From Chrysochromulina tobinii (Eukaryota): a stretch of 35,408 nt of DNA. This document shows, one piece after another, positions 8,801-9,347 of this stretch. The stretch is from the NCBI GenBank assembly GCA_001275005.1, contig JWZX01002366.1, forward strand, positions 1 through 35,408, in the 5' to 3' direction. The notes below the pieces were generated by a model. The model was not told the DNA's origin, searched no databases, and saw nothing but the letters and a program-made list of their open reading frames with translations. Position 1 is the first letter of the stretch; each line of letters starts with the position of its first letter. The position numbers and the translations under genes were made by a program.

Positions 8801-9347
8801 TGAGGCGCGCGAGATGCGAGATGATCTGCTCGGCGCTACGGAGCATGCAAATCCTTTCGGCGAGCTCGTGGCTGCCTTGCCCGCTTCCGCCGAGCTCCCT
8901 TGGGACGAAATGGCGGCCGTACCACTCGCCTCGCCCTCAGCGGCACTCGCATCGAGCCCGTTGACGAACCCTGACAAGCTTTTGAAGGCCAATTTGCATG
9001 AGGGGCACTGGAAGCTGGTGCGCCAGAGCGGTGGCCACCCCGTCTACAAGCGTACCGTCCTCTACGAGGGCGAGGATCGCGCCAAGGAGCAGACGTTCTC
9101 GCATGCGGCCACTCCATCTGACTGGCGCTCGATCCTCAACTCCATCTCTGACTTGCGTGCGCAAGACAGCAACGTGTCTGTCGCGATGCCGCCTGGCGGA
9201 GACGGGCAGCTGGGCCTGTTTCTGCGCCTCAACGAGTGCCATCGCAAGCGCAAGGAAAAGGAGGGCGAGCTGAGCCAGGTTCAGGAGGAGATTTGCATGC
9301 TCGAGAGCGAATGGGGCTACGATTACGAGTACAGCCCCGTCCCTTGA
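5888..9347 (+). CDS. Chimeric multidomain protein: coiled coil, captured FG-nucleoporin tail, acidic tract, RING-HC, SH3-like, Stc1-like C4 zinc finger, SH3-like, coiled coil, HicA-like module. Interrupted by one apparent 1-nt frameshift at ~7826-7828.
   Basis: ORFs 5840..8080 and 7680..9347 join into a continuous motif ('IIHGLVGRADLNGATALLLG'/'TFDARASRLAVQL...RVSIRPANL') if one G of GGG at 7826-7828 is removed. RING-HC 'CPVC...CGHVVCSAC...CPLC' lies at 6932-7072. First ATG is at 5888. Confidence 0.65.
6355..6643. repeat. Inverted dispersed duplication of the nucleoporin 3' end (copy 1)
   Basis: 6402-6643 is the reverse complement of 12212-12453 (242 nt, 4 mismatches by manual alignment). 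6355-6394 is the reverse complement of 12677-12716 (40 nt, 2 mismatches). Confidence 0.97.

Follow-up and report, generated by a model that had tools for sequence, protein, structure and literature searches.

A HicA-like domain of the TPSD subfamily in a RING-finger protein of a Chrysochromulina-type haptophyte, possibly a single-chain RNase effector

The gene and its reading frame

The 35408 bp stretch of DNA analysed here (hereafter the window) carries an intronless nuclear gene (coordinates 5888 to 9347, forward strand) from a haptophyte of the Chrysochromulina type. The 1152 aa RING protein encoded by its intact allele includes a domain likely derived from HicA toxins of the TPSD subfamily and predicted to cut RNA via a conserved His, and could quite possibly act as a single-chain, self-restrained RNase effector.

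The HicA-like peptide is encoded at 8970 to 9167 (forward strand) within a stop-to-stop open reading frame at 7608–9347, and the RING and Stc1-like fingers are encoded in an open reading frame at 5837–8080 (forward strand), which in the window as written is in a different frame. A 1152 aa protein recorded under the source name Chrysochromulina parva (P0012) matches the first frame over 647 of 647 residues and the second over 506 of 506. A second contig, L002, was found to be the same as the window over 10387 nt except for two single extra G residues in the window, at 7826 and 14123. The first is in a G run (7826 to 7828, forward strand) that has one base more than in L002 and in L003, an allele with 98.6% identity, and it splits the gene into two frames, while the second shifts the frame of a neighbouring FG-rich gene. 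In L002 and L003 a single frame is open from the RING finger to the HicA-like module, encoding 1152 and 1111 aa, respectively. From the N-terminal segment of the L003 protein, 46 residues (77–122) are missing in frame, and the HicA-like domain is identical in both alleles. As L002, L003 and P0012 all read through from RING to module, the two are parts of one protein and their fusion in an algal nuclear gene, proposed in the original prediction, is confirmed.

Because L002, otherwise identical to the window, and L003 read through, an error of base calling or assembly is the most likely cause of the break at 7826. Were the break real in the sequenced strain, the split or broken allele would yield a protein with the RING alone and, at most, a 375 aa module protein with its own start. 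The window does read in this way, and a 375 aa product matching its broken frame (P0011) is on record, but the identity with L002, the nature of the two differences (single G residues, both frame-shifting) and the reading through of L003 and of six further proteins (P0003, P0008, P0013, P0015, P0017 and P0027) make this very unlikely. An intron was also considered as the cause of the frame change and rejected; candidate GT-AG sites exist, but the genomic contigs read through without an intron.

The genes located around the RING gene (18 frames scanned) encode Vac14, a WD40 protein, a ThiF/E2-binding E1-type enzyme, an ABC transporter, a TPR-RPAP3 protein and a GATA/C2H2 protein, and the GC3 of the module (0.80) resembles that elsewhere (0.76–0.87). 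As the neighbours are eukaryotic housekeeping genes and the GC3 is host-like, bacterial contamination or a fresh insert was ruled out. Two other frames on the reverse strand were noted, one of 1979 aa (28799 to 34738) with GATA, C2H2 and WSD (DDT-associated) motifs, which is likely a chromatin regulator, and one (19075 to 20904) that joins SnoaL/DUF4440-like and cold-shock domains.

Domain organisation of the protein

The 1152 aa protein consists, in order, of a coiled coil, an FG-rich copy, an acidic run, the RING finger, a beta domain, an Stc1-like finger, a second beta domain, a linker, a helical domain, a coiled coil, the HicA-like domain and a further coiled coil, all encoded on the forward strand. 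The N-terminal segment (5945 to 6307), a likely coiled coil judging from the sequence only, is not conserved in distant relatives. It is followed by the FG-rich segment (6392 to 6643), which has a basic stretch at its end and, as an inverted copy, is 97% identical to the 3′-end of the neighbouring FG-repeat (nucleoporin-like) gene, the likely donor sequence being located at 12212 to 12463 on the reverse strand. Compared over a longer region (6344 to 6643, forward strand, with 12212 to 12511, reverse strand), the in-frame inverted copy shares 97% identity over 252 nt and 91% over 300 nt. The relative P0037 is without the segment (17 of 80 residues identical), and the copy was apparently captured recently and in this lineage only, much like an exon. 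We take its basic tail to resemble a nuclear-import signal.

The donor gene (about 12197 to 15950, reverse strand) is a long FG/FSFG-repeat nucleoporin-like gene with no Pfam match, split in the window by the extra G at 14123. A 236 aa metagenomic protein (P0019, in the P0003 cluster) combines the N-terminal segment and FG copy of the RING gene with a C-terminal end like that of the FG-repeat gene. It is either a short paralogue in its own right or the product of misassembly over the repeat.

The RING-HC (C3HC4) finger (6932 to 7075), a predicted E3 ubiquitin-ligase module, has the zinc-ligand pattern of RING-HC E3 ligases and scores 21.1 bits against Pfam PF00097 (zf-C3HC4; cut-off 21), with 22.6–24.1 bits in P0037 and P0068. 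Between 15 and 35 of its 48 residues are identical in seven divergent relatives. The conserved beta-rich domain that follows (7085 to 7447) appears SH3/KOW-like by eye. The Stc1-like C4 zinc finger (7610 to 7717) matches PF12898 with E = 0.11 here and with E = 4e-5 to 1e-3 in relatives, where it occupies an N-terminal, middle or C-terminal position and so is mobile in the family. Hence, of the two fingers originally predicted to lie in the same protein, the ubiquitin-ligase finger is recognised at the Pfam cut-off, and the Stc1-like finger is weak here and stronger in relatives.

A conserved helical domain that bears a GVxLARN motif, with a likely coiled coil after it (together 8211 to 8873), is a candidate in-cis regulator and has a weak TPR_12 match in the relative P0124. 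The HicA-like domain of the TPSD subfamily (8970 to 9185) is predicted to have an alpha-beta-beta-beta-alpha arrangement with one extra strand and a lengthened beta2-beta3 hairpin, and is near neutral, with a net charge of −2 to +4 in the window protein and its closest relatives. Conservation and alignment point to the invariant His (9036 to 9038), which lies where the beta1-beta2 loop ends, as the predicted catalytic residue. The TPSD-x-R motif opening helix 2 (9111 to 9128) is a signature common to phage and bacterial HicA-like proteins and to Class 10 of Gerdes. A predicted long C-terminal helix (9207 to 9317), likely a coiled coil, is found in most relatives.

A family of related proteins

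A phmmer search against 1.84 billion representatives identified 21 matches at E ≤ 1e-3, and 20 of these are true relatives (clusters at 50% identity). The remaining match, P0051, is a PepSY-repeat protein and was dropped as false. A profile search, in which only the 7995 best-word candidates were scored, added six further clusters; the domain profile leaves out the N-truncated P0040 and P0041. Residues L, W, H, R, Q, T, S, R and L are invariant in the 20-sequence domain alignment. In line with the proposed catalytic-type His, this residue is kept in 20 of 20 aligned members and in all 43 distinct domain sequences that cover the column (45 distinct sequences in all), although whole proteins drop to 22–28% identity. 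The TPSD-x-R motif is similarly kept among the 45 distinct domains (T in 45, P in 44, S in 45, D in 44 and R in 45). A joint alignment places the family His on the His of Escherichia coli HicA and of Adephagia gp91 by sequence. As the His is invariant across very divergent proteins, it has probably been retained for catalysis.

Long relatives with 25–52% identity retain the order RING, beta domain, helical GVxLARN domain, module and helix. This order is found in P0037, P0068, P0059, P0069/P0111 (with TPR) and P0109 (with UIM), and less exactly in P0062 and P0123. In distant relatives, 24–32 of 66 module residues are kept, compared with 9–14 of about 50–60 in the aligned linker. A RING partner is present in about seven divergent lineages, a UIM in P0047, P0050, P0071 and P0109, and across the family the fusion partners are RING, UIM, MYND, TPR and Stc1-like parts. 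At least three branches (P0072/P0073, P0052 and P0048) show no RING. On these comparisons, the RING-module fusion appears to be a conserved family architecture and not a one-off. The same domain was seen in unrelated long proteins, P0072/P0073 being a predicted membrane protein with a C-terminal Stc1-like finger and P0052 a protein with a MYND finger, indicating domain shuffling.

Judging from their eukaryote-type domains, family members outside the Chrysochromulina cluster are probably from algae or protists. A word-based, insensitive search for free-standing relatives of 42–137 aa found one fragment and no close short form, and viral contigs searched with the window protein and P0052 yielded no close copy. 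ESM Atlas matches to phage clusters, at 0.78–0.86, are at most leads. Residues about 490–520 of P0059, a distant relative, resemble the Nup98 GLEBS motif, as judged by eye, and have no Pfam match; after the FG copy, this stretch is a second weak hint of a link to the nuclear pore.

Relationship to HicA toxins

The window's domain has no match to Pfam HicA_toxin (PF07927; gathering cut-off 27 bits). Five of 20 family members match this model at E ≤ 1, the best with E = 0.002, and the best whole-protein score is 16.4 bits. NCBIfam gave no HicA match for the family, profile comparison with E. coli HicA and Adephagia gp91 gave no match, and PDB sequence searches that used the domain, the family profile or the phage profile as query found no HicA.

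The 'HicA-like' model of PADLOC (PDLC02910) matches 18 of 20 members (best E = 6.3e-8; E = 0.019 for the window's own domain), PHROG 2089 matches 19 of 20 and PHROG 2053 matches 13 of 20. Phage proteins annotated as 'HicA-like toxin' fall into PHROG 2089, and E. coli HicA and gp91 into phrog_353. A profile of 25 prokaryotic TPSD proteins recovered all 20 family domains at 10–36 bits (best of 2000 shuffles, 8.6), and the reverse profile recovered all 25 prokaryotic proteins at 14–31 bits (best of 2500 shuffles, 9.6). The prokaryotic profile also ranked frame 7608–9347 clear first of 561 window frames (24.3 versus 7.4 bits). These reciprocal matches, with those to PADLOC and PHROG, bear out the earlier suggestion of kinship with short phage and bacterial proteins ending in TPSD-x-R...N...L-R.

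Most of the sequence link to the prokaryotic TPSD proteins comes from about 23 C-terminal columns, and hhalign aligned 54 columns to one phage protein and 23 to the phage profile (97.5–97.7%). With the His-bearing N-terminal half alone, six of 20 domains scored above the 99th shuffle percentile (0.2 expected) and none above the shuffle maximum. The pattern of G-W, His and TPSD-R-N-L is common, in order along the whole domain, to the family and the prokaryotic TPSD proteins. In an unrooted tree of 76 columns, from which Class 10 was left out, the 27 eukaryote-type and 25 prokaryotic sequences are on two sides of one branch (support 98/95), which would fit a single acquisition and names no donor. 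The HicA-type identity that had been predicted thus stands as kinship with the TPSD subfamily, to which these comparisons assign the domain, but not as canonical HicA, as it is below the cut-off of PF07927. HicA ancestry of the domain is very probable.

Predicted fold

The AlphaFold model, predicted from 21 sequences (pLDDT 91, pTM 0.74), has a helix, three strands and a helix (H2–12, E16–19, E26–33, E39–45 and H53–66) plus a short fourth strand, with the His at the end of the beta1-beta2 loop, as in HicA, and a 36-residue helix following the domain. As the first model, of the domain with this C-terminal helix, was swamped by coiled-coil matches, the HicA-like domain was refolded alone for structure comparison. 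In a full structural alignment (VIA) against 48161 PDB chains, ranks 1–3 were all HicA toxins, namely 6g26_E (Z 5.3, rmsd 2.9, 56 of 61 residues aligned), 5yrz_D (Z 4.5) and 1whz_A (Z 4.4), the last named as HicA in Gerdes 2024 (PMC10865869). HicA3 (4p78_D) was at rank 11. Z scores of 4.4–5.3 are modest, the highest being within the range that the tool calls common, and it is the agreement of the ranks that counts. Foldseek found nothing at E ≤ 1e-3 in the PDB or BFVD; in BFVD, small proteins from phages ranked highest, and proteins annotated as HicA-like toxins came 12th and 22nd (probability 0.98 and 0.97). The HicA-like alpha-beta-beta-beta-alpha fold was therefore obtained as a prediction, with HicA chains as its top three structural matches, and of the combined AlphaFold and Foldseek check that had been proposed, the first part gave the expected fold and the second gave no match at that threshold.

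A dsRNA-binding domain (dsRBD) of ordinary eukaryotic type, or an unrelated small alpha/beta domain, could resemble HicA by convergence, given a short motif and a common fold. Consistent with this, Foldseek places dsRBDs (DCL4, ADAR2, MLE and Loquacious) beside HicA in the PDB, all non-significant, the DCL4 chain is at rank 5 in the structural alignment (Z 4.1), tied within 1 with ranks 2–3, and the sequence signal is concentrated in one motif. However, at E ≤ 1 the Pfam dsrm families match none of 20 members, HicA-like families are indicated by three profile libraries, and the shared residues run in order along the whole domain, which makes convergence very improbable.

Prokaryotic relatives and the antitoxin

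In 13 of 20 bacterial TPSD loci, a conserved gene that bears an HTH is located downstream, as in toxin-antitoxin operons; seven of the 13 built the partner profile, and three of the 20 loci are partial motif matches only. In the bacterial and prophage loci L006, L020, L022–L024 and L026–L034, the TPSD gene is followed by a conserved partner of 110–170 aa, mostly with a C-terminal HTH_17. The identity of the bacterial partner as HicB could not be shown, and its N-terminal part has no Pfam HicB match. The TPSD gene and its HTH partner look like a toxin-antitoxin pair without a Pfam annotation. Among 11 phage TPSD loci, one has a partner gene of the bacterial type and ten do not, and all 11 sequences of the phage alignment carry the His. 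Actinobacteriophage genes annotated as 'HicA-like toxin' (PHROG 2089) at L001, L005 and L009–L016 are without a partner gene, and 260 phage records match.

Neither P0012 nor any of 18 window ORFs matches Pfam HicB. With the profile of the bacterial partner, the highest score among the 561 window frames is 7.1 bits and that of P0012 is −4.7, and ten long family proteins give no match. There is thus no partner gene of the bacterial type among the window frames, in agreement with the original observation that no HicB-like antitoxin is nearby. A plasmid search with the P0054 domain gave chance matches only.

Comparison with known systems

The nearest published counterparts of the domain are the Class 10 hicA genes, which are located downstream of prokaryotic viperins (PMC10865869; bioRxiv 10.1101/2023.12.08.570793). 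In a string search of Table S1 of Gerdes 2024 (PMC10865869), TPSD occurs 12 times, in nine HicA, all of the viperin-linked Class 10, and in three HicB. The table rows of Class 10 share with the algal domain, by eye, the pattern G-W...H...TPSD-x-R...N...D-(L/V)-R, and the two have in common the HicA topology and the lack of an adjacent HicB. However, the tabulated Class 10 proteins are free prokaryotic proteins of 65–92 aa adjoining viperin, whereas the algal domain is within a 1152 aa eukaryotic RING protein and has a beta2-beta3 hairpin longer by roughly 10 residues, an extra strand and a C-terminal helix. A scan of 18 long window ORFs detected neither viperin (radical-SAM) nor another defence gene, the flanking genes encoding a WD40 protein and Vac14. 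Our guess is that PDLC02910 is a viperin-linked model.

With the actinobacteriophage and bacterial 'HicA-like toxin' proteins (PHROG 2089 and 2053), the family shares a reciprocal profile match and invariant His, SD and N. Those proteins are single-domain (60–93 aa), the bacterial ones often with an HTH partner, whereas the algal gene has none. Canonical HicA (PF07927; E. coli HicA, 6g26, 5yrz, 1whz, 4p78 and Adephagia gp91) resembles the algal domain in the predicted dsRBD-like fold and in the His at the end of the beta1-beta2 loop, near a Gly. It differs in that the algal domain is below the Pfam cut-off, has no pairwise profile match, carries another motif in helix 2, lacks HicB and is part of a eukaryotic, multidomain protein. 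Unlike the type II HicAB module, in which a 50–100 aa toxin has an adjacent or fused HicB, the domain belongs to a 1152 aa protein with no HicB. Gp91 has been described as basic, whereas the algal domain is near neutral.

A C-terminal HicA-type domain that is preceded by a long helical or coiled-coil part and presumably controlled in cis is also seen in Classes 13 (helical N-terminus and HicA) and 14 (SMC coiled coil and HicA) of Gerdes, as tabulated there, and the arrangement is like that of the single-chain CapRel. Classes 13 and 14 are prokaryotic, are listed without RING, UIM or zinc fingers, and do not have the exact TPSD string in their table rows.

Eukaryotic proteins combining a RING finger with an RNA-binding or RNase part include Roquin, MEX3 and the Regnase-type proteins, in which ubiquitin ligation is coupled to RNA recognition or decay. 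These use ROQ, KH, CCCH or PIN domains, not a HicA-type domain.

Possible function

Published HicAs are ribosome-independent RNases in which the His is needed for activity or toxicity and is masked by HicB (PMC11594946, PMC11373665 and the Gerdes preprint). It seems probable that the predicted HicA-like domain described here is also an active RNase. In the algal protein, the conserved helical/coiled-coil region would keep the nuclease inactive in cis, and turnover dependent on ubiquitin, through the RING here and the UIM in some relatives, may be a second restraint. Release would follow virus infection or stress, after which RNA cleavage by the nuclease could shut down translation and limit replication of the virus or kill the cell. 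Self-restraint in a single chain is favoured because no antitoxin was found nearby and because prokaryotes have HicA fusions in which a helical or coiled-coil region precedes the toxin domain (Classes 13 and 14). A role in defence or cell death is possible and is put forward tentatively. A more specific proposal, that algae domesticated a viperin-linked TPSD HicA toxin into a single-chain, ubiquitin-gated RNase that aborts infection by giant viruses, with the RING, UIM and helical parts replacing the antitoxin, must be considered rather doubtful.

The main rival, other alternatives being smaller, is a domesticated housekeeping ligase of RNA decay or quality control, in which the module, as a mild or substrate-specific RNase or an RNA-recognition part, would direct the RING to ribonucleoproteins, perhaps at the nuclear pore, and would not serve in defence. 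The stable domain order across proteins only 25–52% identical, the location of a gene with host-like GC3 among housekeeping genes, the FG-rich copy with its basic tail and the near neutrality of the domain in the Chrysochromulina lineage would all suit such a ligase. However, the family is small (20 clusters among 1.84 billion representatives) and its partners (TPR, UIM, MYND and Stc1-like) are shuffled, a pattern more typical of conflict genes, the FG copy is specific to one lineage, and the closest published prokaryotic kin are, in the tabulated data, linked to viperin; a housekeeping role is rather unlikely. Alternatively, the domain may share ancestry with the phage and bacterial TPSD proteins, but in a subfamily that is not toxic, and be a non-catalytic module that binds nucleic acid or protein. 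That most phage TPSD genes (10 of 11) are without the bacterial partner gene, and that PHROG 2089 and 2053 are labelled 'unknown function' and are distinct from the canonical toxin family phrog_353, would be expected of such a module. An invariant His in both the eukaryote-type family and the phage alignment, and gene pairs resembling toxin-antitoxin systems at 13 of 20 bacterial loci, would not, and this explanation is improbable.

Significance

HicA is described in bacteria and archaea by Gerdes 2024 (PMC10865869), and the literature, covered as titles and abstract openings and mostly open full texts, contained no eukaryotic HicA, though a mention in a large comparative-genomics supplement is possible. 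A term search of the main text of Culbertson and Levin (PMC10732462) found no mention of HicA, and HicBA, according to the NetFlax study (PMC10440598), escaped its prediction. The algal family poses the question of how a nuclease of toxin-antitoxin type is kept quiet without an antitoxin gene.

The setting is the haptophyte algae, whose cell-level defence against giant viruses is poorly known. As C. parva has cultured viruses (PMC12085832), the idea of a defence role is directly testable. If true, this would be the first eukaryotic HicA immune effector, and the few bacterial defence modules that eukaryotes have adopted (viperin, CD-NTase and STING) would be joined by an RNase toxin, in a conserved family whose catalytic His is intact.
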